From the IMG/VR virus record IMGVR_UViG_2541047774_000010: a DNA stretch of 47,713 nt; one strand, 5' to 3'. The position numbers were made by a program, and so were the translations under genes. Shown piece after piece: positions 5,598 through 47,713 of the stretch. The stretch comes from a virus (taxonomy: Duplodnaviria > Heunggongvirae > Uroviricota > Caudoviricetes). Every line of letters begins with the position of its first letter. Position 1 is the first letter of the stretch. The notes below the pieces were generated by a model. It was not told the origin of the DNA, did not search any database, and saw only the letters and a program-made list of their open reading frames with translations.

Positions 5598-5960
5598 TTA
5601 ATGACCTGCTGCGCGGAGTTTTCCGTCAGGTTCACCGGCAAGAGTCAGTAATTGTCCCTGGTCTTCCTGCAGAATAGTCAGGCGACCACCGCGATTGACA
5701 TACATCGGCGTTTCGGTGGTGTCTTCTTCGGAAATTTTCCCGCGGTTAGTCGGGCGAACATATGAGAGTTTGTGTTTGATTTTCACACGGTTCTCATCAA
5801 ATGGTTCGATTTCCAGGTTGAGTGAGACCTTACCTTTGGTTTTCGTGTTCATCACACCTGAAGCGACTTCACTGAGAACTGCGCCGATTTTGGTTTCAAA
5901 TACGCCGCCGTCCAGCTCCCCGATAAATGCCTGCACATCAGTACTGCGTTCGCTAGCCAT
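5598..5960 (-). CDS. yfdP: YfdP-like hypothetical protein
   Basis: 120 aa from MASERST with AGGAG 8 nt upstream; the track ORF extends further 5' from a TTG; position and size as for CPS-53 yfdP. Confidence 0.65.
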   Translation of the reverse strand: MASERSTDVQAFIGELDGGVFETKIGAVLSEVASGVMNTKTKGKVSLNLEIEPFDENRVKIKHKLSYVRPTNRGKISEEDTTETPMYVNRGGRLTILQEDQGQLLTLAGEPDGKLRAAGH

Positions 5961-6096
5961 TTTGCTGCTCCTCATCATATCGACCCTGCAAGGTCGGTTG
6001 GTTTCTCCACAAAACAGAGAAGAACACCTGCGGTGGCAGCCGCCCGGATGGATTGGGTTATGAGCCCGTCGTCCGGTGATGCTCTTCTCTGTTTTG

Positions 6097-6175
6097 TAAA
6101 AAGAGCGGTACCAGCCGGAAGCAAGTGTACAAACTGGTACCGCCAAAGCAGTGGCTGTTGTGGTGACCGGTGCTG
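6097..6175 (-). ncRNA. dicF: Candidate DicF-like sRNA ending in an intrinsic terminator
   Basis: Minus-strand stem GCGGTACCAG / CTGGTACCGC (plus 6133-6142 and 6106-6115) followed by a U-run; the segment TTTGGCGGTACCAGTTTGTAC matches the DicF core as I recall it (TTTGGCGGTATCAGTTTTAC) at about 18 of 20 positions. Recall-based, not verified. Confidence 0.35.
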
Positions 6176-6584
6176 ATCTCCGGCTTGCGGTTATTTCAGA
6201 CTCTCACGGGTGTTTAATTGCCCCGCCGAACAGCTCTTTTCCGCAATAGCTGCAATGTCTTTCGCGCATCAGCCTGCGCATTCACCACAACGCTGAGAGC
6301 ACTTAGCCAGTTACGGCACCACACTTTGTCGCGGTTCCATAAATGCCCTCATCGTTGCACCCTGGTCTCTTCCCAGGTGTCAAACCGAACCGCCACGCTG
6401 GTTAGGCGTCTTATCAGCATCATCATTGACTTGCACATTCCGGCTACCTGGTTTGTTTGCCCGAGCAAGGAGTGGATTGTCCCCTTTAACGTCCCCAGAC
6501 CGCTAACGACGCATGTGCCATACGCCGTGTTACAACCAAATTTTGTTAGTACCTTGTTTGTTGGTCTGGAAAGAAAGATAAAAT

Positions 6585-6630
6585 GAAGTTGCGCATTATG
6601 CAAGTGTTTTTGTTGCGAGATATGCAATTT
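6585..6630. promoter_or_regulatory. OL-like operator repeats and putative leftward early promoter
   Basis: Two 15-bp sites of form TTGCG-N5-TGCAA (TTGCGCATTATGCAA at 6589-6603, TTGCGAGATATGCAA at 6613-6627), similar to the sites between cI and cro; located just beyond the cI terminator. Confidence 0.4.
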
Positions 6631-6637
6631 GATGGGT

Positions 6638-6662
6638 AATGAAAAGCCACCTTCGGGTGGCT
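6638..6662 (-). terminator. Intrinsic terminator downstream of cI
   Basis: GCCACC-TTCG-GGTGGC hairpin followed on the minus strand by a T-run, about 20 nt after the cI stop. Confidence 0.6.
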
Positions 6663-6682
6663 AATTGATGAGGAGGTAAGGG

Positions 6683-7375
6683 TTAATTGTGTCGCTTAAG
6701 GGTTTGTGACTGGCTGATTAAGACCTTTCCAAAGACCATAAACCGGTGTTCATTTTCGCTGGTAATTCCCCATTCACGGTAAATCTGGTTATCAGAAATC
6801 ACCAGTAGTTTGTCAGGTATCATTTGCAGTCGTTTGACATAAATTTTATCATCAAAACCAAATACATAGATACCATCTCCATCAAACTGATTGATACTGA
6901 CATCAACGAAGATGAGATCTCCTGGCTCAATGGTTGGACACATACTGTCCCCACGAACGTTGATTACTTTAATGTGATTTGCTGGCCGTCCGCCAAACAT
7001 CGATACAGCATTATCAGTTCTGTATTCAATGGCATGAATCACATCAATGACATCACCGCCCTGGATAAGGCCATTTCCCGCACTGGCACTGATATCCAGC
7101 ATTTCAATACGGAATACATCCTTCACCTGCGCAACATCCTCACTAATACTGTTTTTACATACAGTATTACTTTTGAAGTCTGAGGTAAAGAGATCAGCAA
7201 TATCAACACCTAAGCTCCTGGCAATATTACTCAGGGCTTGTTCAGTGAATTGTTTCTGCTTACCTGTTTCCAGGCGCGAGATATTTGCCGCATCCACTCC
7301 TATTGCTTCAGCGAGATCGGCGATTTTCATGTTCTTCGCTTGGCGAAGTTGTCTGACTCGATTTCCTATGTTCAT
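6683..7375 (-). CDS. cI: CI-like prophage repressor (XRE HTH plus S24 LexA-type peptidase domain)
   Basis: 230 aa; N-terminal HTH (VRQLRQAKNMKIADLAEAIGVDAANISRLETG); Ala-Gly cleavage site (SASAG); C-terminal GDSMCPTIEPGDLIFVD with the Lys of the catalytic dyad; divergent from cro. Confidence 0.93.
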   Translation of the reverse strand: MNIGNRVRQLRQAKNMKIADLAEAIGVDAANISRLETGKQKQFTEQALSNIARSLGVDIADLFTSDFKSNTVCKNSISEDVAQVKDVFRIEMLDISASAGNGLIQGGDVIDVIHAIEYRTDNAVSMFGGRPANHIKVINVRGDSMCPTIEPGDLIFVDVSINQFDGDGIYVFGFDDKIYVKRLQMIPDKLLVISDNQIYREWGITSENEHRFMVFGKVLISQSQTLKRHN

Positions 7376-7395
7376 GCGTTTATTACATTTCTTTA

Positions 7396-7458
7396 TTGCG
7401 CGTTAAGCAAATCAACTTGCGCAAAATATTTGCGTGAAATAATATGCTCATCACGCAA
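7396..7458. promoter_or_regulatory. OR operator/promoter region between cI and cro
   Basis: Inverted repeats TTGCGC-N17-GCGCAA (7396-7424) and TTGCGTGA-N13-TCACGCAA (7430-7458); rightward promoter candidate TTGCGC (7417-7422), 17-nt spacer, TAATAT (7440-7445), then cro RBS GGAGG. Confidence 0.6.
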
Positions 7459-7472
7459 TATGTGGAGGTTAT

Positions 7473-7733
7473 ATGCAATCACCATTACGGAATGTGCGTA
7501 AAGCGCACGGATTTACTTTGCAGCATGTTGCTGCTGGCGTTCAGGTCAATCCAGCGACGCTGAGTCGTATTGAAAGACTGGAACAAATTCCATCTATCGA
7601 GCTTGCAGAACGTCTGGCCAATTTTTTTAAGGGTGAAATCAGCGAAATGCAGATTCTTTATCCGGCACGTTTTCAATCTAGCCAAAACCAGAATGGGTTT
7701 AAACCACAGGAACAGGAGATAAGCCGTGGGTAA
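7473..7733 (+). CDS. cro: Cro-like HTH repressor
   Basis: 86 aa; XRE-type HTH (LQHVAAGVQVNPATLSRIER); divergent from cI across the operator region. Confidence 0.85.
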   Translation: MQSPLRNVRKAHGFTLQHVAAGVQVNPATLSRIERLEQIPSIELAERLANFFKGEISEMQILYPARFQSSQNQNGFKPQEQEISRG

Positions 7734-8277
7734 GCATCACTGGAAAGTGGAAAAACAGCCTGAGTGGTACGTGAAAGCTGTCAGAAAAACTATCGCGGCG
7801 TTGCCGGGGGGTTACGCTGAAGCTGCTGAGTGGCTGGATGTAACAGAGAACGCTTTATTCAACCGCCTTCGTGCAGATGGCGATCAGATTTTCCCGCTGG
7901 GATGGGCAATGATTTTACAGCGCGCTGCTGGCACTCACTACATTGCGGATGCTGTCGCACAGTCTGCTGGTGGGGTGTTTGTATCGCTTCCTGAAATTGA
8001 GGAAGTAGAGAACGCCGATATAAACCAGCGCCTGCTGGAAGTCATCGAACAAATCGGGAGTTACTCAAAGCAGATTCGTTCGGCAATCGAAGATGGGGTA
8101 GTGGAGCCACACGAGCAGACAGCAATTAATGATGAGTTGTATCTGTCGATTTCGAAGCTCCAGGAGCATGCGGCACTGGTCTACAAAATTTTCTGCGCTC
8201 CAGAAAAGAGTGACGCCCGCGAGTGTGCAGCTCCGGGCGTCGTGGCGTTTTGTGTCTGTGGAGAAACTAACGCATGA
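7726..8277 (+). CDS. Early regulatory protein in the CII position (YdaT/CII-like); GTG start
   Basis: 183-aa ORF beginning at a GTG with AGGAG 8 nt upstream, overlapping the cro stop; the call rests mainly on position. Confidence 0.45.
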   Translation: MGKHHWKVEKQPEWYVKAVRKTIAALPGGYAEAAEWLDVTENALFNRLRADGDQIFPLGWAMILQRAAGTHYIADAVAQSAGGVFVSLPEIEEVENADINQRLLEVIEQIGSYSKQIRSAIEDGVVEPHEQTAINDELYLSISKLQEHAALVYKIFCAPEKSDARECAAPGVVAFCVCGETNA

Positions 8278-8602
8278 ACAGTTTAACGGCAAATAACCGT
8301 TTGTCGCAACAGCTGGTGGTCAGCGTCTCTGAACACCTGTTGTTACGGCATGAATGCAGATTACCAAATCACCAGGCTGTAAGTAACCACAGAGAACTTT
8401 ACCTGACTGTGGGGGGCGAGTTGTGCAGGAACTTAACCGCTGGTTTCGTGACGGAAGAGGGCTTTATGTTCATGTTATTCGTTGGGAACCAGAAACACAG
8501 CGCGTTATCTATCTTCGCAAAGACTACCCGCATGAGTGCTTTAGTCCTTTGTGGAAATTCAGGCGTGATTTTGTTGAGTGTGACGGACCACCAACACATT
8601 GA
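8274..8602 (+). pseudogene. Small early gene split by a G6 homopolymer (frame disrupted in this sequence)
   Basis: ATG 8274 with good RBS (GGAGA); frame 0 runs through G6 at 8411-8416 into non-coding-looking sequence; the protein-like continuation VQELNRWFRDGRGLYVHVIRWEPETQRVIYLRKDYPHECFSPLWKFRRDFVECDGPPTH (8423-8602) lies in the +1 frame. Confidence 0.4.
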
Positions 8603-8687
8603 TTCTGCCATTCCGGGACGTTACACTGTTCAGGCACCTTATAAAACGGGTGCCGGGCGTGGAAACCCGGAATTCACCAAAGCGCAC

Positions 8688-8711
8688 AACCGCGCTCTTG
8701 CGGTTTTTTTG
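8688..8711 (+). terminator. Intrinsic terminator (tR1-like position)
   Basis: AACCGC-GCTCTT-GCGGTT hairpin followed by T7; it lies inside the track's 8274..9425 ORF, arguing that region is not coding. Confidence 0.45.
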
Positions 8712-8879
8712 TGTCATGAGCAGCATTACGCCCAAATTATGGTGGGGCGTGCAGGGCCAACTTCGGTTGGGCCGGGTTCTTTGGTGACCGGTATTTCCAC
8801 CCCTGTACGTCTCACCACCAATAAGGTCGTGGAAAGCCTTGGTGGTGAGTTATTAAAAATCACCAAAGAGGCTGCCATC

Positions 8880-9425
8880 ATGGCTACGATCCCAACCCTC
8901 ACTCAACCTGAAATTGCCATCGTTGATGGTCAGGTTGTTACTTCATCCCTGGCTGTTGCCAACTTCTTCTCCAAACGTCATGACGATGTACTGAAAAAGA
9001 TCCGCACGCTTGAATGCTCAGCATCATTCACTGCCCGCAATTTTTCGGTGAGTGATTACACTGATTGCACAGGTCGCAAACTTCATTGCTACCAAATCAC
9101 ACGCGATGGTTTTGCGTTTCTTGCTATGGGTTTCACGGGTAAACGTGCTGCCCAGTTCAAAGAGGCATATATCAATGCCTTTAACCAGATGGAGAAACAG
9201 CTTTCAAAGCCCGCTGTACCGAGCGACGTTGCACATAACGCCAGCGTTCTCTGTTCCTACATTTCATCAATTCATCAGGTCTGGCTGCAGCAGCTTTATC
9301 CTATGTTGGCAAAAGCCGAATCTCCGCTGGCTGTTAGCTTATATGATTATATTAATGATGCTTCGGCGCTGGCCTGCCTCATAAATTTGTCGCTGAACCC
9401 TTCAGAGGTAAGGGGGCGCAAATGA
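8880..9425 (+). CDS. rha: Rha-family phage regulatory protein (antirepressor-like)
   Basis: 181 aa from MATIPTLTQPEIAIVDGQVVTSS with RBS AAGAGG; motif GFAFLAMGFTGKRAAQFKEAYINAFNQME is typical of Phage_pRha. Confidence 0.8.
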   Translation: MATIPTLTQPEIAIVDGQVVTSSLAVANFFSKRHDDVLKKIRTLECSASFTARNFSVSDYTDCTGRKLHCYQITRDGFAFLAMGFTGKRAAQFKEAYINAFNQMEKQLSKPAVPSDVAHNASVLCSYISSIHQVWLQQLYPMLAKAESPLAVSLYDYINDASALACLINLSLNPSEVRGRK

Positions 9426-27763: not shown

Positions 27764-29722
27764 ATGCAGGCAGGTCACCAGAGTGACGCGGATATTTATA
27801 TTTATGACGAGATTGGTTTCTGGGGTGTTACGGCGAAGCAGTTTATCAGTGATCTGAATGCACTGGGCGATATCACCCACATTAATCTCCATATTAATTC
27901 ACCGGGTGGCGATGTCTTTGAAGGCATCGCCATTTTTAATGCACTGAAAACACATGGTGCGTCCATTACCGTTTATGTCGACGGTGTGGCGGCGTCAATG
28001 GCGTCGGTCATTGCGATGGTGGGAAACCCGGTCATTATGCCGGAAAACTCCTTCATGATGATTCATAAACCATTTGGCTTTACGGGCGGTGATGCGGAGG
28101 ACATGCGCACCTATGCCGACCTGCTCGATAAAGTTGAGGCGGTTCTGTTACCCGCTTATGCACAGAAAACCGGGAAAACCACCGATGAAATTGCTGCCAT
28201 GCTGGCGGATGAGACCTGGATGTCCGGTGCCGAATGTCTGGCACAGGGATTTGCTGATCAGGTGACACCAGCCGTTAAGGCAATGGCATGTATTCAGTCA
28301 AAACGTACAGAGGAATTTAAAAAGATGCCGGAATCCATTCGAAATATGATTACTCCGCCACGCAACAGTGCTCCACGCGTACAGGATGATGGACCTGCAG
28401 CCTCCCGGACGCCAGTGCAGGCAGCAGCACCCGTGGTGGATGAAAACAGCATCCGTGCGCAGGTCCTGGCAGAGCAAAAAGCGCGTGTAAACGGTATTAA
28501 TGATCTGTTTGCCATGTTTGGTGGGCGTTATCAGTCGCTGCAGGCTCAGTGTCTTGCCGATCCTGAATGTTCGCTGGAGCAGGCCCGCGAAAAGCTGTTG
28601 AACGAGATGGGGCGCGAGTCCACGCCATCCAATAAAAATACCCCGGCTCATATTTATGCCGGTAACGGTAATTTTGTGGGGGACGGGATCCGCCAGGCGC
28701 TGATGGCGCGCGCCGGGTTTGAAAAAACCGAACGTGATAATGTCTACAACGGGATGACCCTGCGTGAATATGCCCGTATGTCACTGACTGAACGTGGTAT
28801 TGGTGTTTCCAGTTATAACCCGATGCAGATGGTCGGTGCGGCGTTCACACACAGTACGTCTGACTTCGGTAATATTCTGCTGGATGTTGCGAACAAAGCC
28901 ATTCTGCAGGGCTGGGAAGATGCCCCTGAAACCTATGAACAGTGGACGCGGAAAGGTCAGTTGTCTGATTTTAAAATTGCCCATCGTGTGGGTATGGGGG
29001 GCTTCAGTGCTCTGCGTCAGGTGCGTGAAGGGGCAGAATATAAATACGTCACCACCGGAGATAAACAGGCCACTATTGCACTGGCGACCTATGGCGAGCT
29101 GTTCAGTATCACCCGTCAGGCCATTATCAATGATGATCTGAATATGCTGACCGATGTCCCGATGAAGCTGGGCCGTGCGGCGAAATCCACTATTGCCGAT
29201 CTGGTTTATGCCATTCTGACGTCTAACCCGAAAATCTCCACAGATAATGTAAGTCTGTTCGATAAAGCGAAACATGCAAACGTACTGGAGAGCGCGGCAA
29301 TGGACGTGGCATCGCTGGATAAAGCCCGCCAGTTGATGCGCGTTCAGAAAGAGGGTGAGCGTCATCTGAATATTCGTCCTGCGTTCGTACTGGTACCGAC
29401 GGCGATGGAGTCTGTTGCTAACCAGGTCATTCGCTCCTCAAGTGTCAAGGGGGCTGACATTAACGCCGGTATTATTAACCCGGTGAAAGATTTTGCGACC
29501 GTTATTGCAGAGCCTCGTCTTGATGATAACAGCCAGACCACCTTCTACCTGGCTGCGTCCAAAGGCTCCGATACGATTGAAGTGGCTTATCTCAACGGTG
29601 TGGATACGCCATATATTGATCAGATGGAGGGCTTCAGTGTGGATGGCGTGACAACGAAAGTACGTATTGACGCTGGTGTTGCGCCAGTTGATCACCGCGG
29701 CCTGGTGAAATGTACGGCGTAA
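27764..29722 (+). CDS. Prohead protease (ClpP/S49-like) fused to major capsid protein
   Basis: N-terminal ClpP-like region (INSPGGDVFEGIAIFNALK...MMIHKPFGFTGGDAEDM) followed by about 450 aa of capsid-like sequence; the track ORF start at 27503 overlaps the portal and is probably not used (ATG at 27764). Confidence 0.78.
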   Translation: MQAGHQSDADIYIYDEIGFWGVTAKQFISDLNALGDITHINLHINSPGGDVFEGIAIFNALKTHGASITVYVDGVAASMASVIAMVGNPVIMPENSFMMIHKPFGFTGGDAEDMRTYADLLDKVEAVLLPAYAQKTGKTTDEIAAMLADETWMSGAECLAQGFADQVTPAVKAMACIQSKRTEEFKKMPESIRNMITPPRNSAPRVQDDGPAASRTPVQAAAPVVDENSIRAQVLAEQKARVNGINDLFAMFGGRYQSLQAQCLADPECSLEQAREKLLNEMGRESTPSNKNTPAHIYAGNGNFVGDGIRQALMARAGFEKTERDNVYNGMTLREYARMSLTERGIGVSSYNPMQMVGAAFTHSTSDFGNILLDVANKAILQGWEDAPETYEQWTRKGQLSDFKIAHRVGMGGFSALRQVREGAEYKYVTTGDKQATIALATYGELFSITRQAIINDDLNMLTDVPMKLGRAAKSTIADLVYAILTSNPKISTDNVSLFDKAKHANVLESAAMDVASLDKARQLMRVQKEGERHLNIRPAFVLVPTAMESVANQVIRSSSVKGADINAGIINPVKDFATVIAEPRLDDNSQTTFYLAASKGSDTIEVAYLNGVDTPYIDQMEGFSVDGVTTKVRIDAGVAPVDHRGLVKCTA

Positions 29723-29745
29723 ACGTCGCAGACAACAACTCTGAT

Positions 29746-29766
29746 GGCCCGTAAGGGCTTTTTTTG
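29746..29766 (+). terminator. Intrinsic terminator or attenuator after the capsid gene
   Basis: GCCC-GTAA-GGGC hairpin followed by T7; a second hairpin CAGCCCC-TGAA-CGGGGCTG at 29778-29796. Confidence 0.5.
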
Positions 29767-29808
29767 TACCTGAAATCAGCCCCTGAACGGGGCTGTGCGG
29801 AGACAGTT

Positions 29809-30132
29809 ATGGCAAAGAATTTTGTAGAAGAAGGAAAAACGGTGGCGATTGTTGCCAGTGCAGCCATCAGCAGCGGAGATCTGGTGCAGGTGGGTGATGT
29901 TTTTGCGGTGGCGCTGACCGATATTCCACAGGGAGAAACAGGCGACGGCATAACCGAAGGTGTGTTTATGCTGCCTAAGCTGAAAACGGATGACATGAAA
30001 ACGGGTAAGAAGGTTTATATGAAGTCAGGAAAAGTTCAGCTGACTAACAGCGGCTCTGATCCGCTGGTCGGGGTTGTCTGGGCAGATGCCGGAACCAGTG
30101 CAGAAGAAGTGCCGGTAAAACTCAATGTCTGA
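29809..30132 (+). CDS. Small head protein (DUF2190-like, FI position)
   Basis: 107 aa from MAKNFVEEGKT with RBS GGAGA; directly follows the capsid gene. Confidence 0.5.
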   Translation: MAKNFVEEGKTVAIVASAAISSGDLVQVGDVFAVALTDIPQGETGDGITEGVFMLPKLKTDDMKTGKKVYMKSGKVQLTNSGSDPLVGVVWADAGTSAEEVPVKLNV

Positions 30133-30400
30133 TCCCTTTTCCCGGCTGGCAGCGCGTATGGATGCGATCACGGTCAGAAAGATGGGAAAGACAGCCTCGA
30201 TTAATGATGTCGATATGACTGTGATCCCGGGAGAAACACTGGCAGAGCTGAATGCTCTGTCCGGACCTGCGGTCTCTCTGGTGGTGTTTTCTTCGGGATA
30301 CCGCCCACGGCGCGGGGATCGCGTTGTTTATGACGGACAACAATGGACGGTCACACGGCATGAACGCTTTAACGGTAAGCCAATGATCTTTATTGAGTAA
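30125..30400 (+). CDS. Head completion / head-tail joining protein, gpFII-like
   Basis: 91 aa; RRGDRVVYDGQQWTV resembles the lambda FII region RRGDTLTIGEENFWV; located before Z. Confidence 0.55.
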   Translation: MSDPFSRLAARMDAITVRKMGKTASINDVDMTVIPGETLAELNALSGPAVSLVVFSSGYRPRRGDRVVYDGQQWTVTRHERFNGKPMIFIE

Positions 30401-30411
30401 AGAGGTGTGGG

Positions 30412-30990
30412 ATGAAGGGGCTTGAGAATGCCATCCGCAATCTGAACAGCCTTGATACCCGTATGGTGCCACAGGCCAGCGCATGGGCGATAAACCGTGT
30501 GGCACAGAAAGCGGTCTCGGTTGCCACCCGGCAGGTTGCCGGGAATACCGTTGCGGGAGATAACCAGGTGAAAGGGATCCCCCTGAAACTGGTACGTCAG
30601 CGTGTCCGGGTGTTTAAAGCCAGTCCGTCAGGAAAAATGACGGCCAGGATCCGCGTTAACCGAGGCAATCTGCCCGCCATTAAGCTGGGGACAGCCCGGG
30701 TCAGACTGGCCCGGCGTGGTGGAAAACTGCAGTACCGTGGCAGTGTGCTGAAGGTGGGTAAATATCTTTTCCGGGATGCGTTTATTCAGCAACTGGCGAA
30801 TGGTCGCTGGCATGTGATGCGACGTATTGATGGCAAAAATCGTTACCCCATTGATGTGGTGAAAATCCCGCTGTCCGGACCGCTGACACAGGCATTTGAA
30901 GATGCCCGCGACCACATCATTGCTGCGGAAATGCCGAAACAGCTGGGGTATGCACTGAAACAACAACTGAGGTTATGGCTGACCCGATGA
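30412..30990 (+). CDS. Z: Minor tail protein Z
   Basis: 192 aa (lambda Z is 192 aa); MKGLENAIRNL...IKLGTARV...NGRWHVMRRIDGKNRYPIDVVKIP matches lambda gpZ as recalled. Confidence 0.88.
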   Translation: MKGLENAIRNLNSLDTRMVPQASAWAINRVAQKAVSVATRQVAGNTVAGDNQVKGIPLKLVRQRVRVFKASPSGKMTARIRVNRGNLPAIKLGTARVRLARRGGKLQYRGSVLKVGKYLFRDAFIQQLANGRWHVMRRIDGKNRYPIDVVKIPLSGPLTQAFEDARDHIIAAEMPKQLGYALKQQLRLWLTR

Positions 30991-31388
30991 ACCGACATAC
31001 ACAAATCCGCCAGGCCGTACTGGCACGCCTTCGGGAACAGTGTGGAGACAGCGCCACGTTTTTTGACGGGCTTCCGGCATTTATTGATGCGCAGGAACTG
31101 CCTGCCGTGGCGGTGTGGCTGAGTGATGCTCAGTACACCGGAAAAATGACGGATGAAGATGACTGGCAGGCTGTTCTGCATATTGCCGTCTTCATCCGGG
31201 CACAGGCACCGGATTCAGAGCTGGATATGTGGATGGAGAGCACCATTTTCCCTGCCCTGAATGATGTACCGGCACTTTCCGGACTCATCGACACCCTGAT
31301 CCCACTCGGTTTTAACTATCAACGTGATAATGAGATGGCCACCTGGGCGATGGCGGAAATCACGTACCAGATCACGTACACGAATTAA
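30975..31388 (+). CDS. U: Minor tail protein U (tail terminator)
   Basis: 137 aa; ATFFDGLPAF...LPAVAVWLSDAQYTG...DSELDMWMES matches lambda gpU as recalled. Confidence 0.88.
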   Translation: MADPMNRHTQIRQAVLARLREQCGDSATFFDGLPAFIDAQELPAVAVWLSDAQYTGKMTDEDDWQAVLHIAVFIRAQAPDSELDMWMESTIFPALNDVPALSGLIDTLIPLGFNYQRDNEMATWAMAEITYQITYTN

Positions 31389-31398
31389 GGAGGTGGTA

Positions 31399-32142
31399 AT
31401 GACCACACCAAATCCACTGGCAAAGACGAAAGGTGCGGGGACGACGTTCTGGATGTATACCGGCAATGGCGATGCGTTTGCGAACCCTTTGTCGGACACT
31501 GACTGGCTGCGTCTTGCGATGGTGAAGGATCTGCAACCTGGCGAAATGACCGCTGATGCAGAAGATGACACTTATCTCGATGATGAAGATGCAGACTGGA
31601 AAACGACAACCCAGGGGCAGAAATCCGTCGGTGATACTTCGGCGACGCTGGCCTGGCGTCCGGGTGACAGCGGGCAGAAAAAACTGGTTCAGTTGTTCGA
31701 CTCCGGTGAAGTCTGCGCGTTTCGTATCAAATATCCCAACGGTACTGTTGATGTTTTCCGTGGCTGGCTGAGTTCACTGGGTAAAACCATTGCCTCAAAA
31801 GACGTGATGACCCGCACAGTGAAAATCAGCGGTGTGGGGCGTCCGTATCTGGCAGAAGAAGGCACTGAAACCGTGGGCGTTACCGGGCTGACGGTGGCAC
31901 CGGCATCTGCCAGTGTAAAAGTGGGAGCAACCACCACGCTGACCTTTACAGTAAAACCTGACGGAGCCAGTGACAAAGCGATCAGTGTGCATTCGACAGA
32001 TCCACAGACTGCCACGGTGACCCTGAACGGGCTTGTGGCCACGGTGAAAGGCGTGAAGCAGGGCAGTGTCAGCATTGTGGGCATGACTTCTGACGGCGAT
32101 TTTGTGGCAGTGGCTACGGTGGCTGTCAGCGCCGCAGGTTAA
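31399..32142 (+). CDS. V: Major tail protein V with C-terminal Ig-like (Big_2) domain
   Basis: Start MTTPNPLAKTKGAGTTFW with RBS AAGGAGGTGG; close match to lambda gpV throughout (YLDDEDADW, FRGWLSS). Confidence 0.92.
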   Translation: MTTPNPLAKTKGAGTTFWMYTGNGDAFANPLSDTDWLRLAMVKDLQPGEMTADAEDDTYLDDEDADWKTTTQGQKSVGDTSATLAWRPGDSGQKKLVQLFDSGEVCAFRIKYPNGTVDVFRGWLSSLGKTIASKDVMTRTVKISGVGRPYLAEEGTETVGVTGLTVAPASASVKVGATTTLTFTVKPDGASDKAISVHSTDPQTATVTLNGLVATVKGVKQGSVSIVGMTSDGDFVAVATVAVSAAG

Positions 32143-32162
32143 CAGGACGATACTCATCATTT

Positions 32163-32186
32163 GCCCCGATTATCCGGGGCTTTTTT
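32163..32186 (+). terminator. Intrinsic terminator or attenuator after V
   Basis: GCCCCG-loop-CGGGGC hairpin followed by T6. Confidence 0.55.
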
Positions 32187-32202
32187 GCAGGTGGAGAACA
32201 TG

Positions 32203-32589
32203 ATGTTTCTGAAACAGGGCACGTTTAATTATGAAAAGCAGTCCGTGGTGCTCAGTGAGCTGTCCGGGCTGCAGAGAATTGAATATCTGGCGTTTGTTCA
32301 GCAGCGAACGGCAAAGTTTGATGCCGAAGAGGGAGAACTGCCGGAGGCTGAACGACAGATTGCTTTTCTGCGGATGGGGATGGATATCAATGCCTGGCTG
32401 GTTTCCCGCTCACTGTGGAATGCGGATCAGTCTAAGGATGTAGAGACGCTTTGCGCATCCGTTATTACAACATGGTCGTATGATGCCCTGGGTGCGGGGG
32501 CGGAGATGGTTCTGTCGCTGAGCGGTATGGGGACCATTGATAATGCCGGGGATGATGAGCATGAGGCGCTGACGCCGGAAAAGTCCTGA
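32203..32589 (+). CDS. G: Tail assembly chaperone G
   Basis: MFLKQGTFNYEKQSVVLSELSGLQRIEYLAF matches the lambda gpG N-terminus as recalled. Confidence 0.85.
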   Translation: MFLKQGTFNYEKQSVVLSELSGLQRIEYLAFVQQRTAKFDAEEGELPEAERQIAFLRMGMDINAWLVSRSLWNADQSKDVETLCASVITTWSYDALGAGAEMVLSLSGMGTIDNAGDDEHEALTPEKS

Positions 32590-37749: not shown

Positions 37750-38294
37750 AAACGGGGTCCGAAGCCATCCGGGCGCTGGCCATGCAGATCCCGGCGTTTC
37801 GTCAGAAACTGAGCGACGGCTGGTATCAGGTACGCATTGCCGGGCGTGATGCTGGTGAAACCGAATTGTCTGCCCGTCTTAATGAGCCGCTGGCAAATGG
37901 TGCCGTGATCCACATCGTGCCGCGTCTGGTGGGAGCTAAAAGTGGCGGTGTGTTTCAGGTGGTGCTTGGGGCGGCGCTGATGGCGGTGGCATGGTGGAAC
38001 CCTGTGGGCTGGCTGGGTGCCGCGGCTGTATCGGGCATGTATGCGGCAGGGGCCAGTATGGTCCTGGGCGGAGTGGCGCAGATGCTGGCACCGAAAGCCC
38101 GGACGCCCACAGCGACCAGCACGGATAACGGCAAACAGAACACCTATTTTTCTTCGCTAGATAATATGGTTGCACAGGGTAATTCGCTGCCGGTGCTGTA
38201 TGGCGAAATGCGCGTGGGGTCCCGGGTGGTATCTCAGGAGATCAGCACGGCAGATGAAGGTGATGGTGGTCAGGTTGTGGTGATTGGTCGCTGA
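37647..38294 (+). CDS. I: Tail assembly protein I
   Basis: 215 aa overlapping the end of K; ubiquitin-like N-terminus and Gly/Ala-rich hydrophobic middle, as in lambda I. Confidence 0.85.
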   Translation: MAATHTLPLASPGMARICLYGDLQRFGRRIDLRVKTGSEAIRALAMQIPAFRQKLSDGWYQVRIAGRDAGETELSARLNEPLANGAVIHIVPRLVGAKSGGVFQVVLGAALMAVAWWNPVGWLGAAAVSGMYAAGASMVLGGVAQMLAPKARTPTATSTDNGKQNTYFSSLDNMVAQGNSLPVLYGEMRVGSRVVSQEISTADEGDGGQVVVIGR

Positions 38295-38316
38295 TGAAAA
38301 ACGTTTTATGTGAAAC

Positions 38317-38340
38317 CGCCTCCGGGCGGTTTTGTCGTTT
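38317..38340 (+). terminator. Hairpin between I and J (possible attenuator)
   Basis: CCGCC-TCCG-GGCGG hairpin followed by TTTTGTCGTTT. Confidence 0.35.
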
Positions 38341-38351
38341 ATGGAGCGTGA

Positions 38352-41753
<3,402 letters not shown>

Positions 41754-41770
41754 ATTTTATAACCCATAAC

Positions 41771-41796
41771 GGGCGTCAGAAATGACGCCTTTTTTA
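41771..41796 (+). terminator. Intrinsic terminator after J
   Basis: GGCGTCA-GAAA-TGACGCC hairpin followed by T6. Confidence 0.65.
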
Positions 41797-41819
41797 TTGC
41801 AGAAAAGCGAGAGGTAATT

Positions 41820-42419
41820 ATGCGTAAACTTTATGCCACCATTTTGTCCGCAGCCATCTGTCTGGCCGTATCCGGTGCGCCTGCATGGGCGTCTGAACAT
41901 CAGTCCACGCTGAGCGCGGGCTATCTTCATGCCTCGACGAACGTTTCCGGCAGCGATGATCTGAACGGGATTAACGTGAAATACCGTTATGAGTTTACGG
42001 ACACACTGGGGCTGGTGACGTCATTCAGCTATGCAGGAGACAAGAATCGCCAGCTTACCCGTTACAGCGATACCCGCTGGCATGAAGATTCAGTGCGTAA
42101 CCGCTGGTTCAGCGTGATGGCGGGGCCGTCTGTACGCGTGAATGAATGGTTCAGCGCGTATGCGATGGCGGGTGTGGCTTACAGCCGTGTGTCGACTTTC
42201 TCCGGGGATTATCTCCGCGTAACTGACAACAAGGGGAAAACGCACGATGTGCTGACCGGAAGTGATGACGGTCGCCACAGCAACACGTCTCTGGCGTGGG
42301 GGGCTGGCGTGCAGTTTAACCCGACCGAATCCGTGGCCATTGATATTGCTTATGAAGGCTCCGGCAGTGGTGACTGGCGCACTGACGGTTTCATCGTGGG
42401 TGTCGGTTATAAATTCTGA
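41820..42419 (+). CDS. lom: Lom outer membrane protein (Ail/Lom family moron)
   Basis: 199 aa; signal peptide [24 protein letters not shown]; matches lambda Lom as recalled; flanked by its own terminators. Confidence 0.9.
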
Positions 42420-42445
42420 TTAGCCAGGTAACACAGTGTTATGAC

Positions 42446-42472
42446 AGCCCGCCGGTTCAGGCGGGCTTTTTT
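42446..42472 (+). terminator. Intrinsic terminator after lom
   Basis: AGCCCGCC-GGTTCA-GGCGGGCT hairpin followed by T6. Confidence 0.7.
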
Positions 42473-42483
42473 GTGGGGTGAAT

Positions 42484-45400
42484 ATGGCAGTAAAGATTTC
42501 AGGTGTACTGAAAGACGGCACAGGAAAACCGGTACAGAACTGCACAATCCAGCTGAAAGCAAAACGTAACAGTACCACGGTGGTGGTGAACACGCTGGCC
42601 TCAGAAAATCCGGATGAAGCCGGGCGTTACAGTATGGACGTTGAGTACGGTCAGTACAGCGTTATTCTGTTGGTGGAGGGATTCCCGCCGTCACATGCCG
42701 GGACCATCACCGTGTATGAAGATTCTCAACCCGGTACGCTGAATGATTTTCTCGGTGCCATGACGGAGGATGATACCCGTCCGGAGGCACTGCGACGTTT
42801 TGAACTGATGGTGGAAGAGGTGGCGCGTAACGCGTCCGCGGTGGCACAGAACACAGCAGCCGCGAAGAAGTCAGCCAGCAATGCCAGCACATCAGCCCGT
42901 GAGGCGGCAACCCATGCGACTGATGCTGCAGGCTCAGCACGCGCAGCCAGCACGTCAGCCGGACAGGCCGCGTCATCGGCTCAGTCAGCGTCTTCCAGCG
43001 CAGGAACGGCATCAGCAAAGGCCACTGAAGCATCAAAAAGTGCTGCCGCTGCAGAGTCCTCAAAAAGCGCGGCGGCTACCAGTGCCGGTGCGGCGAAAAC
43101 GTCAGAAACGAATGCGGCAGCGTCACAACAATCAGCAGCCACTTCTGCATCCACCGCGACCACGAAAGCGTCAGAAGCAGCCACTTCAGCACGGGATGCG
43201 TCGGCTTCAAAAGAGGCGGCAAAATCATCAGAAACGAACGCAGCCTCGAGCGCCAGCAGCGCAGCTTCCTCGGCAACGGCGGCAGGAAATTCCGCGAAGG
43301 CGGCAAAAACGTCCGAGACGAACGCCAGGTCTTCTGAGACGGCAGCGGGACAGAGCGCCTCAGCTGCGGCAGGCTCAAAAACAGCGGCTGCGTCGTCTGC
43401 CAGTGCCGCGTCAACAAGTGCCGGGCAGGCCTCAGTCAGTGCCACCGCCGCCGGAAAATCGGCAGAAAGCGCCGCATCATCCGCTTCAACAGCCACAACG
43501 AAGGCTGGCGAAGCCACTGAGCAGGCCACGGCAGCAGCGAGGTCAGCTTCCGCAGCGAAGACATCCGAAACGAACGCGAAAGCGTCGGAAACCCGTGCAG
43601 AATCCTCAAAAACGGCAGCGGCATCGTCCGCCAGTTCGGCGGCGTCATCGGCCTCATCGGCGTCTGCTTCAAAAGATGAGGCGACCAGACAGGCGTCAGC
43701 AGCGAAGGGCAGCGCCACGACGGCATCCACGAAGGCGACAGAGGCTGCTGGTAGTGCGACGGCAGCAGCTCAGAGCAAAAGTACGGCGGAATCTGCAGCA
43801 ACGCGCGCTGAGACAGCGGCAAAACGGGCAGAGGATATTGCATCCGCCGTGGCGCTTGAGGATGCGAGCACGACGAAAAAGGGGATAGTACAGCTCAGCA
43901 GTGCGACCAACAGTACGTCTGAAACGCTGGCGGCAACGCCAAAGGCAGTAAAATCAGCCTATGACAATGCAGAGAAACGTCTGCAGAAAGACCAGAACGG
44001 CGCTGATATACCCGATAAGGGACGCTTCCTGAACAACATTAACGCGGTCAGTAAAACAGACTTTGCTGATAAGCGTGGTATGCGTTATGTGCGGGTTAAC
44101 GCTCCTGCAGGTGCAACATCTGGAAAATATTACCCTGTTGTTGTTATGCGTTCTGCTGGCTCAGTAAGCGAACTGGCATCAAGGGTCATTATCACCACGG
44201 CAACGCGAACCGCAGGCGATCCGATGAATAACTGCGAGTTTAACGGATTTGTTATGCCTGGTGGCTGGACTGACAGGGGGCGTTATGCTTATGGAATGTT
44301 CTGGCAATATCAAAACAATGAACGAGCCATCCACTCAATAATGATGAGTAATAAGGGCGATGATTTGCGCTCTGTGTTCTATGTTGATGGCGCTGCTTTC
44401 CCTGTTTTTGCGTTTATCGAAGATGGCCTGTCAATATCCGCACCTGGTGCTGATCTCGTTGTTAATGATACGACCTATAAGTTTGGGGCAACAAATCCAG
44501 CGACTGAATGTATCGCGGCGGACGTTATCCTTGATTTTAAGAGTGGGCGTGGTTTTTATGAGTCTCATTCGTTAATCGTTAACGATAACTTGTCGTGCAA
44601 AAAACTTTTTGCCACAGACGAAATTGTAGCGCGTGGTGGTAATCAGATTCGAATGATAGGTGGGGAGTATGGTGCATTATGGCGTAATGATGGCGCTAAA
44701 ACTTACCTGCTGCTTACCAATCAAGGTGATGTTTATGGTGGCTGGAATACATTAAGACCGTTTGCTATTGATAACGCAACCGGCGAGCTGGTTATTGGAA
44801 CCAAACTGTCCGCAAGTCTGAACGGTAATGCATTAACAGCAACAAAGCTGCAAACGCCAAGACGGGTTTCTGGGGTTGAGTTTGATGGTTCCAAAGATAT
44901 TACTTTAACCGCCGCGCATGTGGCTGCTTTTGCCAGAAGAGCAACGGATACGTATGCCGATGCGGATGGGGGCGTTCCATGGAATGCCGAATCAGGCGCT
45001 TACAATGTCACCCGCTCTGGCGACAGCTATATTCTGGTTAACTTCTATACCGGAGTCGGAAGTTGCCGGACCCTGCAGATGAAGGCGCATTACAGAAATG
45101 GAGGTCTGTTCTACCGTTCCTCAAGAGATGGCTATGGTTTTGAGGAAGACTGGGCAGAAGTTTATACCTCGAAAAATCTTCCACCAGAAAGCTACCCAGT
45201 CGGCGCACCAATCCCGTGGCCATCAGATACCGTTCCGTCTGGTTATGCCCTGATGCAGGGGCAGACTTTTGACAAATCTGCATACCCGAAACTTGCAGCC
45301 GCTTATCCGTCAGGCGTGATCCCTGATATGCGTAGCTGGACGATTAAGGGCAAACCTGCCAGTGGTCGGGCCGTATTGTCTCAGGAACAGGACGGCATTA

Positions 45401-45837
45401 AATCGCACACCCACAGCGCCAGCGCATCCAGTACGGATTTGGGGACGAAAACCACATCGTCGTTTGATTACGGCACTAAATCCACGAATAACACCGGGGC
45501 GCATACGCACAGTGTGAGCGGTACAGCCGCAAGTGCCGGAAACCATACTCATAGTGTCACAGGCGCATCAGCAGTCAGCCAGTGGTCACAAAATGGGTCA
45601 GTACATAAGGTAGTGTCTGCGGCCAGTGTGAATACAAGTGCTGCAGGAGCGCACACTCATAGTGTTAGCGGCACAGCCGCATCTGCAGGTGCTCACGCAC
45701 ATACTGTCGGTATTGGTGCTCATACGCACTCTGTTGCGATTGGCTCACATGGACACACTATCACCGTTAACGCTGCTGGTAACGCGGAAAACACCGTCAA
45801 AAACATCGCATTTAACTACATTGTGAGGCTTGCATAA
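42484..45837 (+). CDS. stf: Side tail fibre protein Stf (repeat-rich shaft, HxH-repeat tip)
   Basis: Start [26 protein letters not shown] as in lambda Stf; long Ala/Ser/Thr repeat shaft; C-terminal run of HTHS/HAHT repeats typical of gp37-like tips. Confidence 0.9.
42840..43850 (+). repeat. Low-complexity Ala/Ser/Thr tandem repeat region inside stf
   Basis: Reiterated units such as AAKTSETNA and ASSAASS in GC-rich DNA; this region generates the spurious ORFs on both strands in the track. Confidence 0.75.
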
Positions 45838-46412
45838 TGGCATTCAGAATGAGTGAACAACCACGGACCATAAAAATTTATAATCTGCTGGCCGGAACTA
45901 ATGAATTTATTGGTGAAGGTGACGCATATATTCCGCCTCATACAGGTCTGCCAGCAAACAGTACCGATATTGCACCGCCAGATATTCCGGCAGGCTTCGT
46001 GGCTGTTTTCAACAGTGATGAGGCATCGTGGCATCTCGTTGAAGACCATCGGGGTAAAACGGTTTATGACGTAGCGTCAGGGGACGCGTTATTTATTTCT
46101 GAACTCGGTCCGTTACCGGAAAATGTTACCTGGTTATCGCCGGAAGGGGAGTTTCAGAAGTGGAACGGCACAGCCTGGGTGAAAGATGCAGAAGCAGAAA
46201 AACTGTTCCGGATCCGGGAGGCGGAAGAAACAAAAAACAGCCTGATGCAGGTAGCCAGTGAGCATATTGCGCCGCTTCAGGATGCTGCAGATCTGGAAAT
46301 TGCAACGGAGGAAGAAATCTCGTTGCTGGAAGCATGGAAAAAGTATCGGGTATTGCTGAACCGTGTTGATACGTCAACTGCACAGGATATTGAATGGCCA
46401 GCACTGCCGTAG
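45837..46412 (+). CDS. tfa: Tail fibre assembly protein Tfa
   Basis: 191 aa, translationally coupled to stf (TAATG); typical Tfa N-terminus ([36 protein letters not shown]). Confidence 0.85.
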
Positions 46413-46509
46413 GGTAAAACATATAAATTCTATAATTAGATGTATCTTTCCATTTACGGCAAGGAAGGGGGCTTGGAAGACGTAAAGCATCTCACACCAA
46501 GATTATTTT

Positions 46510-47100
46510 TTATATGTCAGGTGTCTGAAGTTTTGCTTTGGCTCTTAAAATGGTTTGCCGCGAGGTTTTGAATTCCCGGGCAATGGCACTTATACTTACA
46601 CCTGACTTAATCCGTTCGAATACCACCTGTTTCTGTTCTTCATTTAACACAGGTGGTCGACCAAAACGTTTCCCTGCGCCCCGGGCTCTTACTATCCCGG
46701 AATGAGTGCGTTCAAGTAAAAGGTCTCGTTCAAATTCAGCGACTGCTGAAATTACTTGCATCATCATTTTTCCTGTTGGACTGGTCAGGTCAATGCCCCC
46801 CAATGCTAAGCAATGCACTCTGATACCTGTTTCGGTCAGTTGTTCCACTGTTTTCCTGATATCCATTGCATTACAACCAAGGCGATCCAGTTTTGTCACA
46901 ATCAATTGATCACCACATTTCAGGCGAGCAAGCAACCGGTTAAAACCAGGACGCTCACTGGTTGCTGCTGAGCCGCTAATGTGTTCTTCGATTATTTGCT
47001 GAGGTTTGATTTTAAAACCTGCACTTTCGATTTCCCGGCGTTGATTTTCGGTGGTCTGATCCAGCGTTGATATCCGACAGTAAGCAAAAATTCGAGACAT
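46510..47100 (-). CDS. pin: Serine recombinase / DNA invertase, PinQ/PinR-like
   Basis: 196 aa; catalytic Ser in [10 protein letters not shown]-terminal HTH; matches the K-12 prophage invertases PinQ/PinR as recalled. Confidence 0.9.
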
Positions 47101-47479
47101 AGTGAGACTCTATACGAAATTGGTGTACATATCATAATGCATATCCAAAAATTATTTCGCTTATTATTGTACATATTTGTATGTATACGTTCGAAAATAA
47201 ACGAATTCGGATGCAGTCCCGTAATTTTGGTGTAACCAAAAATCGATTTTTTGAAAAATGGCTTTAACTCGGTTTGTTTTTCGAACTCCGGGCGGACTCG
47301 AGGAAGACGAATAATAGTGTTGTATGTTATTTCAACCAGATTTTAAGTTGTTTGGTCGTGGAAAAGTGGAGCAAAATGTTGTTAAAGTGGAAAAATGGTA
47401 AAAAAAGTAGGTTGTTGCGGAATAACGTAGTTGTTGATATTTTTTTAATGCATTGAAAAATTATTTTTCAGGGGGGGTA

Positions 47480-47713
47480 TTACACTTTACCATTTAAATT
47501 TTGGTTGTCTTTAAGAACTGATATCGCTGTTTGTAATAATTCTTTGTTATCCAGCCATGACTTTTTCTTTATGTTTCCTTCAATGTAATCAAGCAATGTT
47601 CTGGTATTGATAGGTCTTCCCTGTTTTGCTACTTCCACGACAGCATCTCCCAGGATAATTCTGACTTCAGGAAGCTGCGCAGGGAACCACTTTAGGGTGT
47701 CTTTTGATTTCAT
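47480..47713 (-). CDS. ydfK: Cold shock-induced small protein YdfK/YnaE-like
   Basis: 77 aa MKSKDTLKWFPAQLPEVRIILGDAVVEVAKQG matches YdfK/YnaE as recalled; the start codon is the last three bases of the window; long AT-rich leader upstream. Confidence 0.8.
   Translation of the reverse strand: MKSKDTLKWFPAQLPEVRIILGDAVVEVAKQGRPINTRTLLDYIEGNIKKKSWLDNKELLQTAISVLKDNQNLNGKV

Follow-up and report, generated by a model that had tools for sequence, protein, structure and literature searches.

The pin element and its features

IMG/VR record IMGVR_UViG_2541047774_000010 is a stretch of 47,713 nucleotides from a tailed virus (Caudoviricetes), which is called the window in the following. Close to its end lies pin, a gene for a small serine recombinase, placed between the tail-fibre assembly gene tfa and a ydfK/ynaE-type gene. 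The pin protein is 100% identical to PinR of prophage Rac in Escherichia coli K-12 (b1374) and is two amino acids apart from PinQ of prophage Qin (b1545). In the databases, PinR-type proteins are called 'DNA invertase from lambdoid prophage Rac' or 'recombinase family protein'. The orphan 'invertase' is a long-known feature and the gene itself is a familiar one; what is corrected here is its origin. We propose, with a probability of about 0.75, that pin is the tnpR gene of an 834-bp derivative of a Tn3-family transposon, which is devoid of a transposase gene and is built up as inverted repeat (IR) - tnpR - res - IR (46467-47300). The features of this putative element are the following:

46462..46466: AGGAA, left copy of a probable 5-bp target-site duplication, abutting the GGGG tip of the left IR
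46467..46509, plus strand: left terminal IR of the Tn3-family type, reading GGGG, then three nucleotides lost, then GCTTGGAAGACGTAAAGCATCTCACACCAAGATTATTTTTT
46510..47100, minus strand: pin, an intact open reading frame (ORF) of 196 amino acids with an ATG start, coding for a tnpR-type small serine recombinase
46873..46875, minus strand: codon 76 of pin, TGT (Cys); Arg in the transposon TnpRs, in Gin and in gamma-delta/Tn3 resolvase (R71 of Tn3)
47111..47129: palindrome (TATACGAAATTGGTGTACA) resembling res subsite III, beside the start of pin and well conserved in comparison to the transposons, one arm at 7/9 positions
47142..47173: decayed res subsite II (9+14+9), the positional homologue of site II in the plasmid transposon L008
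47188..47213: subsite I of res, decayed, which serves as the crossover site in the transposon (9+8+9, 26 bp), the positional homologue of site I in L008
47254..47300, minus strand: right terminal IR, more decayed and with the tip CGAG instead of GGGG, recognized by its match to the right IR of plasmid element L005
47301..47305: second AGGAA, following the tip of the right IR and probably the right-hand copy of the target-site duplication

An earlier note, made from the sequence alone, had described the recombinase as complete, and it is: the gene lies 97 nt past the tfa stop, its ORF is intact, and the protein displays the Pfam domains Resolvase (125 bits) and HTH_7 (43 bits). The codon of the catalytic Ser11 is at 47068-47070.

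Transposon relatives of pin

E. coli plasmids harbor a gene for a 196-amino-acid recombinase which is 83% identical to pin in nucleotides. The TnpR of L008 (pCFSAN004180G, 28579-32393) shares 84% identity with PinR (334 bits). Here, tnpR is divergent to, and 160 bp away from, the gene of a 994-amino-acid protein containing the Pfam domains DDE_Tnp_Tn3 (487 bits) and DUF4158, and the pair is enclosed by inverted repeats of 53 nt, which start with GGGG, are 96% complementary and lie 3815 bp apart. L008 is a canonical minimal Tn3-family transposon of 3.8 kb (IR-tnpR-res-tnpA-IR). The same architecture is present in Shewanella copies annotated as ISSba14 family, with TnpR identities of 77-79%, and a 9.4-kb relative of the transposon is found in S. 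glacialipiscicola. The plasmid mini-element L005 consists of IR - tnpR - res - IR only. Matching 5-bp flanks were not found for the plasmid copies L005 and L008, which hence add no evidence for mobility. The recognition helix of pin is likewise of the transposon TnpR type and not of the type found in the Din invertases.

In Budvicia aquatica (L028, ~5861-9270), a Tn3-type IR lies directly upstream of the start of a recombinase that is 77% identical, and its counterpart follows at a distance of about 3.3 kb; a transposase is absent from the stretch in between. This is another transposase-less derivative, seemingly with passenger DNA.

The proteins P0004-P0008, which are 86-93% identical to PinR and carry Arg76, were considered as evolutionary intermediates and rejected due to their mosaic structure, in which the N-terminal part is of the plasmid TnpR type and the C-terminal part of the PinR type. 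As one of them is encoded on a complete E. coli chromosome, recombination appears to take place between the copies of plasmid transposons and those of prophages; some of the short-contig cases within this group could be assembly chimeras. The loci L029 (Shigella) and L030 were tried as old diverged alleles of the tfa-pin-ydfK region; they are frameshifted remnants and uninformative.

Ends of the element and its probable insertion

Terminal IRs of the Tn3 family have a length of about 38-50 bp and a GGGG tip. Both ends of the element stand out in alignments. In a local alignment the left IR matches the IR of L008 with a score of 25, in comparison to 6.3 +/- 1.2 for shuffled sequences, a score that none of 2000 shuffles reached, and it is the best match on the plus strand of the window. 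The right IR aligns to the right IR of L005 with a score of 20 (shuffled sequences 6.9 +/- 1.3, 0 of 2000 reaching it), which is the best match on the minus strand, and it is nearer to the IR of L005 than to that of the full transposon. A BLAST comparison of the window with the transposon yields homology from 46465-46471 to 47180-47196, beginning inside the IR and ending inside res. Using the 994-amino-acid TnpA as a query, tblastn found no match in the window, in Rac, in Qin or in L001, a locus from another genome with the same tail module, so that the element would be non-autonomous at best.

The IR remnants as well as the AGGAA flanks are common to the window, Rac, Qin and the phage HannyBb, and these identical ends and flanks suggest a single old insertion. 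A duplication of 5 bp is what transposition of a Tn3-family element would leave, and Tn3 IRs with an adjoining 5-bp duplication have been reported before (PMC3332091). On the side of the tail-fibre genes, homology to the tfa gene of lambda reaches to about 46402, and for mEp332 and ev099 it extends to about 46418. The roughly 48 nt between the end of the tfa homology and the left IR were met only in records which also carry the pin element.

E. coli K-12 contains two copies of the element (Rac, L003 7085-7675; Qin, L004 1623-2213), which are about 200 kb apart and in opposite orientation, so that two decayed res regions are present in inverted arrangement.

The res region

A res of the Tn3 family has three resolvase-binding subsites upstream of tnpR. 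In three full transposons, the spacer between tnpR and tnpA contains two palindromes with TGTCCGAAA arms, one of 26 bp, which is site I by position, and one of 32 bp (site II). Sites I and II of L008 match this arm at 17/18 positions each, the copies in the window at 13/18 positions each. The latter are the top-scoring positions of the window, yet by motif alone they are no better than shuffled sequence. Site I of the window keeps a CCGAA core, which has been lost in Rac and Qin.

One of the gix-like half-sites of the earlier note, near 47130-47150, falls into this region. As a gix site this stretch (47142-47150, TATCCAAAA) is at chance level; by position, it is the homologue of an arm of res subsite II (TATCCGAAA) in the Tn3-family transposon, and the motif ATATCCAAAAAT quoted in that note is the outer arm of site II in a decayed form. 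A second res-like site is not present in the window, which leaves the recombinase with no substrate or partner for recombination in cis.

Taken together, the Tn3-type IRs, the AGGAA flanks and the decayed res region around pin suggest that an invertible segment was probably never there.

Active site and selection

At codon 76, every prophage allele has TGT (Cys) and every transposon copy CGT (Arg). Of the 120 protein clusters that are nearest, 115 carry Arg at this position, and the five with Cys are prophage types. The catalytic set checked comprises Y6, R8, S10, D36, R68 and R71 in the numbering of Tn3 resolvase. Of these, PinR keeps the equivalents Y7, R9, S11, E39 (a Glu also in the transposon TnpRs) and R73, and the equivalent of R71 is Cys76, so the active-site set is incomplete. 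In Tn3 resolvase, the variants R71A and R71K show no detectable recombination and an approximately 1000-fold slower cleavage, and binding to the site is kept (PMC2794168). By analogy, PinR would bind DNA and be a poor catalyst with strongly reduced strand exchange.

For the two prophage alleles, the ratio of nonsynonymous to synonymous substitution rates (dN/dS) is 0.36; comparisons of prophage with transposon copies give 0.13-0.16, and the tnpR genes of transposons give 0.07-0.11 among themselves. The pin gene is under relaxed purifying selection with its ORF intact.

Search for an invertible tail-fibre segment

The earlier note had seen no inverted alternative stf/tfa copy beside pin, and this was borne out. 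The window contains a single stf and a single tfa and no inverted copy of either. Whether looked for in the region 38000-47713 or across all 47.7 kb of the window, the longest inverted repeats measure 18-29 nt, are 72-90% complementary and scattered as by chance, and none of them flanks a segment.

For the search for crossover sites that the earlier note had asked for, a 26-mer weight matrix was built from the pix half-sites of prophage e14, taken from K-12, and from gix/hix half-sites. Scanning every 26-mer of the window revealed no pair of sites, and the top score was 10.7 bits, in comparison to 28-31 bits for real sites and about 12 on average for shuffled windows. The top-scoring 26-mer (TAACCAAAAATCGATTTTTTGAAAAA, 47233-47258) lies in the spacer between pin and ydfK, between res site I and the right IR, and is below the shuffles; it is treated as chance. 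The second half-site of the earlier note, near 46560-46585, is also at chance level as gix, and around 46565 it corresponds to codons of the HTH domain (E-F-K-T-S-R).

In Mu and P1, it is the 5' end of the invertase gene and not the 3' end that points towards the tail-fibre genes. In the window, pin is convergent with stf-tfa and has its 3' end towards them. Identification as a Pin/Din-type invertase did not hold either. The window protein is 38% identical to PinE of e14 and 36-38% identical to Gin and Cin (both taken from phage records). It reaches 102-105 bits against Gin, where PinE reaches 312 bits, and it is the TnpR encoded beside a Tn3-family transposase that it matches at 84% identity. 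Against gamma-delta or Tn3 resolvase, it scores 82 bits. In the Din family, the 5' part of the invertase gene contains a recombinational enhancer that depends on Fis, whose sites are highly degenerate. On the nucleotide level, pin has no similarity to pinE or gin that could be aligned.

Surroundings of the element

The genes next to the element serve as context:

42478..45837, plus strand: stf, side tail-fibre gene, 1119 amino acids, with the Pfam domains phage_tail_N, Gp34_trimer and Collar, outside the element
45837..46412, plus strand: tfa, tail-fibre assembly gene, 191 amino acids, with the Pfam domain Caudo_TAP (148 bits)
47480..47713, minus strand: ydfK/ynaE-type gene, 77 amino acids, named ydfK in identical genomes, marking the far side of the insertion

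The order stf - tfa - pin - ydfK/ynaE - ynaM is common to the window, Rac and Qin, and stf takes the position of stfR in Rac. The spacers on the two sides of pin, 97 nt towards tfa and 379 nt towards ydfK, are both free of tail-fibre remnants. A scan for promoters and terminators around pin gave nothing above shuffled sequence. Many E. coli genomes have identical pin copies, and the prophage adjoins prfC there. PinR-type genes are present in 2,877 of 5,426 complete E. coli genomes (~53%) and also in viable lambdoid phages such as HannyBb.

In HannyBb (L036, 4451-5800), a region that begins with the final ~110 nt of tfa and extends over pin as far as ydfK is 92% identical to that of the window. 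The tail-fibre genes upstream are different in this phage, which places a mosaic junction within tfa near position 46301 of the window. An AT-rich palindrome of 18 nt (ATATTTTTTTAATGCATT / AATGCATTGAAAAATTAT, 47437-47464, 89% complementary) lies just downstream of the ydfK stop and outside the transposon remnant. Residues ~120-480 of stf (42800-43900) consist of long low-complexity repeats rich in Ala, Ser and Thr, with long spurious ORFs in other frames and on the opposite strand. In other genomes with the same tail module, a copy of ISEc31 interrupts the tape-measure and tail-tip genes (L001 2657-3870; L007 1-1176). The J-like tail-tip ORF of the window (38355-41753, 1132 amino acids) is intact.

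The reported effect of PinQ on e14

An effect on inversion has been reported for PinQ (Kirigo et al., NAR 2025; PMC12529663). Here, quantitative PCR revealed that the P segment of e14 is 88% inverted upon overproduction of PinQ in comparison to 26-30% in the controls, and survivors of T2 infection overproducing PinQ carried the inverted P segment of 1797 bp. Furthermore, deletion of pinQ lowered the inversion of the segment, and the effect was absent in strains without stfP, stfE or e14. The inversion yields the chimeric protein StfE2, which blocks the adsorption of T2. PinR was treated as the equivalent of PinQ. However, pinE and pinE pinQ mutants were locked in one orientation although pinR (and, in the former, pinQ) was present. 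According to the strain list of this study, PinQ was assayed only in a PinE-positive background, with no catalytic mutant and no in vitro assay, and Tn3 is unmentioned. Within the collection of papers searched for a Tn3-family origin of pinR or pinQ, no paper makes this connection.

Cys76 together with the locked pinE mutant means that the claim of 2025, in which PinQ itself flips the P segment, needs a direct test, and direct catalysis on this segment by PinQ or PinR is unproven. The P region together with pinE is present at a coverage of at least 80% in 170 genomes, and at most ~380 records contain it at an identity of at least 95%. Since PinR-type genes are far more common than the e14 P region, pin cannot have its general role in acting on e14.

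Weighing the explanations

One view would be that pin is an invertase of the Din family (Gin/Cin/Pin/Hin), which was left behind as a relic when an adjoining invertible stf/tfa segment was deleted. Its position beside tail-fibre genes, the usual place of such invertases, its database name, and Gin as the best match among solved structures all fit. Nevertheless, a similarity to Gin, Cin and PinE that is this low, the reversed orientation of the gene, the lack of pix/gix-type sites or half-sites above chance and of an inverted tail-fibre remnant in the window, the Tn3-type IRs bracketing pin and its kinship to a TnpR led to the rejection of this view, which is extremely improbable. The earlier note had offered a lost module with pin as its relic; pin indeed appears to be a relic, though of a transposon and not of an inversion switch, as indicated by the IRs and the 5-bp duplication around it. 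Its other suggestion, that pin acts in trans, leads to the idea that PinR is an active invertase now flipping pix-type segments elsewhere, for example the P segment of e14, as an anti-phage switch of host or prophage. This would be compatible with a transposon origin, and it is what the inversion data, with their dependence on e14, stfP and stfE, speak for; moreover, a CGAAA core is common to the outer pix half-site CTCTCGAAAACC and the TGTCCGAAA arm of the transposon res, with the same register relative to the center. On the contrary, the pinE and pinE pinQ mutants are locked and the assays were restricted to PinE-positive strains, which makes this evidence indirect, and an inversion above ~50% is unlike the equilibrium of a simple invertase and may reflect selection. 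The Cys at the position of the catalytic Arg, the TnpR-type recognition helix, the scarcity of the P region with pinE (170 genomes, against 2,877 of 5,426 with PinR-type genes) and the absence of pix-like sites from the window also speak against an active invertase. An active invertase is regarded as unlikely, albeit to be taken seriously; what stands of action in trans is the published effect itself, and directness is what the locked pinE deletion and Cys76 argue against.

The opposite extreme would be a functionless hitch-hiker, a transposon fossil awaiting its inactivation, which is carried along as the tfa-pin-ydfK block spreads with lambdoid phages. The decay of the IR tips and of res sites I and II, the replaced catalytic arginine, a selection relaxed about three-fold in comparison to the transposon copies (dN/dS 0.36 vs. 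0.07-0.11) and the frameshifted copies in decayed prophages (L029, L030) are in line with this. However, dN/dS is still well under 1 between two alleles that are ~10% apart in nucleotides, thousands of genomes as well as viable phage particles have an intact ORF, conservation is good in subsite III and in the promoter-proximal region, and deletion phenotypes have been reported (PMC12529663). A gene without any function is considered quite unlikely.

Several points weigh against our proposal of a stranded, catalytically weakened tnpR. The AGGAA duplication hinges on the 3-nt deletion read in the tip of the left IR. An empty site, with the flanks joined by a single AGGAA, was searched for in 5,426 complete E. 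coli genomes and 50,697 phage records, and no record spans such a junction, so that the insertion event itself is deduced from the IRs and the duplication. Of the solved structures, Gin (105 bits) is a better match to PinR than gamma-delta/Tn3 resolvase (82 bits), and the protein sequence taken by itself would not lead one to class PinR as a resolvase. What exchanging the catalytic Arg does is known from Tn3 resolvase and is transferred here to a different protein by analogy. The published rise from ~30% to 88% inversion with PinQ and the drop upon deletion of pinQ would, in the simplest reading, reflect an active recombinase. Finally, pin is intact in more than half of the E. coli genomes and in viable phages, which speaks for some retained function.

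Proposed origin and present role

The scenario we favor, with pin as the tnpR of a transposon derivative, would start with the transposition of the 834-bp element into the non-essential tfa-ydfK region of a lambdoid phage. This would have been helped in trans by a transposase like that of the 3.8-kb plasmid relative and would have left the 5-bp duplication AGGAA. An invertible tail-fibre segment would never have been coupled to the element. Since then, both IR tips have decayed, and res subsites I and II have been worn down to motif matches at chance level. The protein may mainly keep its site-specific DNA binding, either for autoregulation at the conserved promoter-proximal subsite III or at related sites in trans. 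If it promotes inversion at all, this would concern other elements and might require the help of a catalytically competent protein, for example PinE.

As candidate roles, autoregulated DNA binding, modulation of PinE-type inversion and interference with related transposons come into consideration. More specifically, PinR and PinQ might be domesticated and catalytically disabled TnpRs, with the Arg76Cys exchange fixed in lambdoid phages, which bind DNA instead of cutting it. Such a protein could aid or bias the inversion of pix-flanked segments by PinE, or it could repress or jam incoming Tn3-family transposons with a res of the TGTCCGAAA type. We regard this specific version as speculative and rather improbable. 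If true, its variant as a modulator of PinE would bring the locked pinE mutant and the published effect of PinQ into agreement.

If pin is the tnpR-res core of a stranded Tn3-family element, this explains why Rac, Qin and their relatives harbor an 'invertase' with nothing to invert. The matter of annotation touches about 53% of the complete E. coli genomes. It represents no new kind of biology; it would correct the origin of a familiar gene and adds caution to a proposed mechanism.

Comparison with known systems

PinR of Rac and PinQ of Qin are the direct counterparts of the window protein, and the difference is that the prophage of the window is another one at another chromosomal site, beside prfC in genomes with an identical copy.

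The Din invertases Gin (Mu), Cin (P1), PinE (e14) and Hin (Salmonella) are, like the pin protein, small serine recombinases of similar size encoded beside tail-fibre genes. In contrast, the pin of the window has no adjoining invertible segment, no 26-bp crossover sites, a different recognition helix and a reversed gene orientation, and the alternative tail-fibre C-termini as well as a tfa in opposite orientation are absent from the window. In e14, as its layout was read here, the orientation of pinE relative to the tail-fibre genes is opposite to that of the window pin.

The canonical resolvases of Tn3 and gamma-delta resemble the system in the domains Resolvase and HTH_7, in a res half-site of the same type (TGTCCGAAA) and in the divergent tnpR-res-tnpA arrangement of the full-length relative. 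The res arms of gamma-delta and Tn3 are of the TGTCYNNTA type. Differences are the low similarity of 82 bits, a site I of 26 bp instead of 28 bp in the relatives of pin, other spacings of the sites and the replaced R71.

The TIMEs and IS101 also have Tn3-type IRs and no transposase gene, so that their mobility would need a transposase in trans, and IS101 and TIME244 carry a res as well. As far as the portions of the literature consulted describe them, these elements are small, consist of IRs and at most a res, and no gene is mentioned, whereas the element of the window additionally has an intact tnpR.

The closest likeness is that to the TnpR-res module of L008 and the ISSba14-type elements, with which the window element shares the gene length of 196 amino acids, the terminal IR, the promoter-proximal subsite III and a homologous HTH recognition helix. 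In contrast to them, it has no transposase gene, it has undergone decay at the IR tips and in res sites I and II, and Arg76 is exchanged for Cys; and it is carried by a phage genome, whereas L008 resides on a plasmid.

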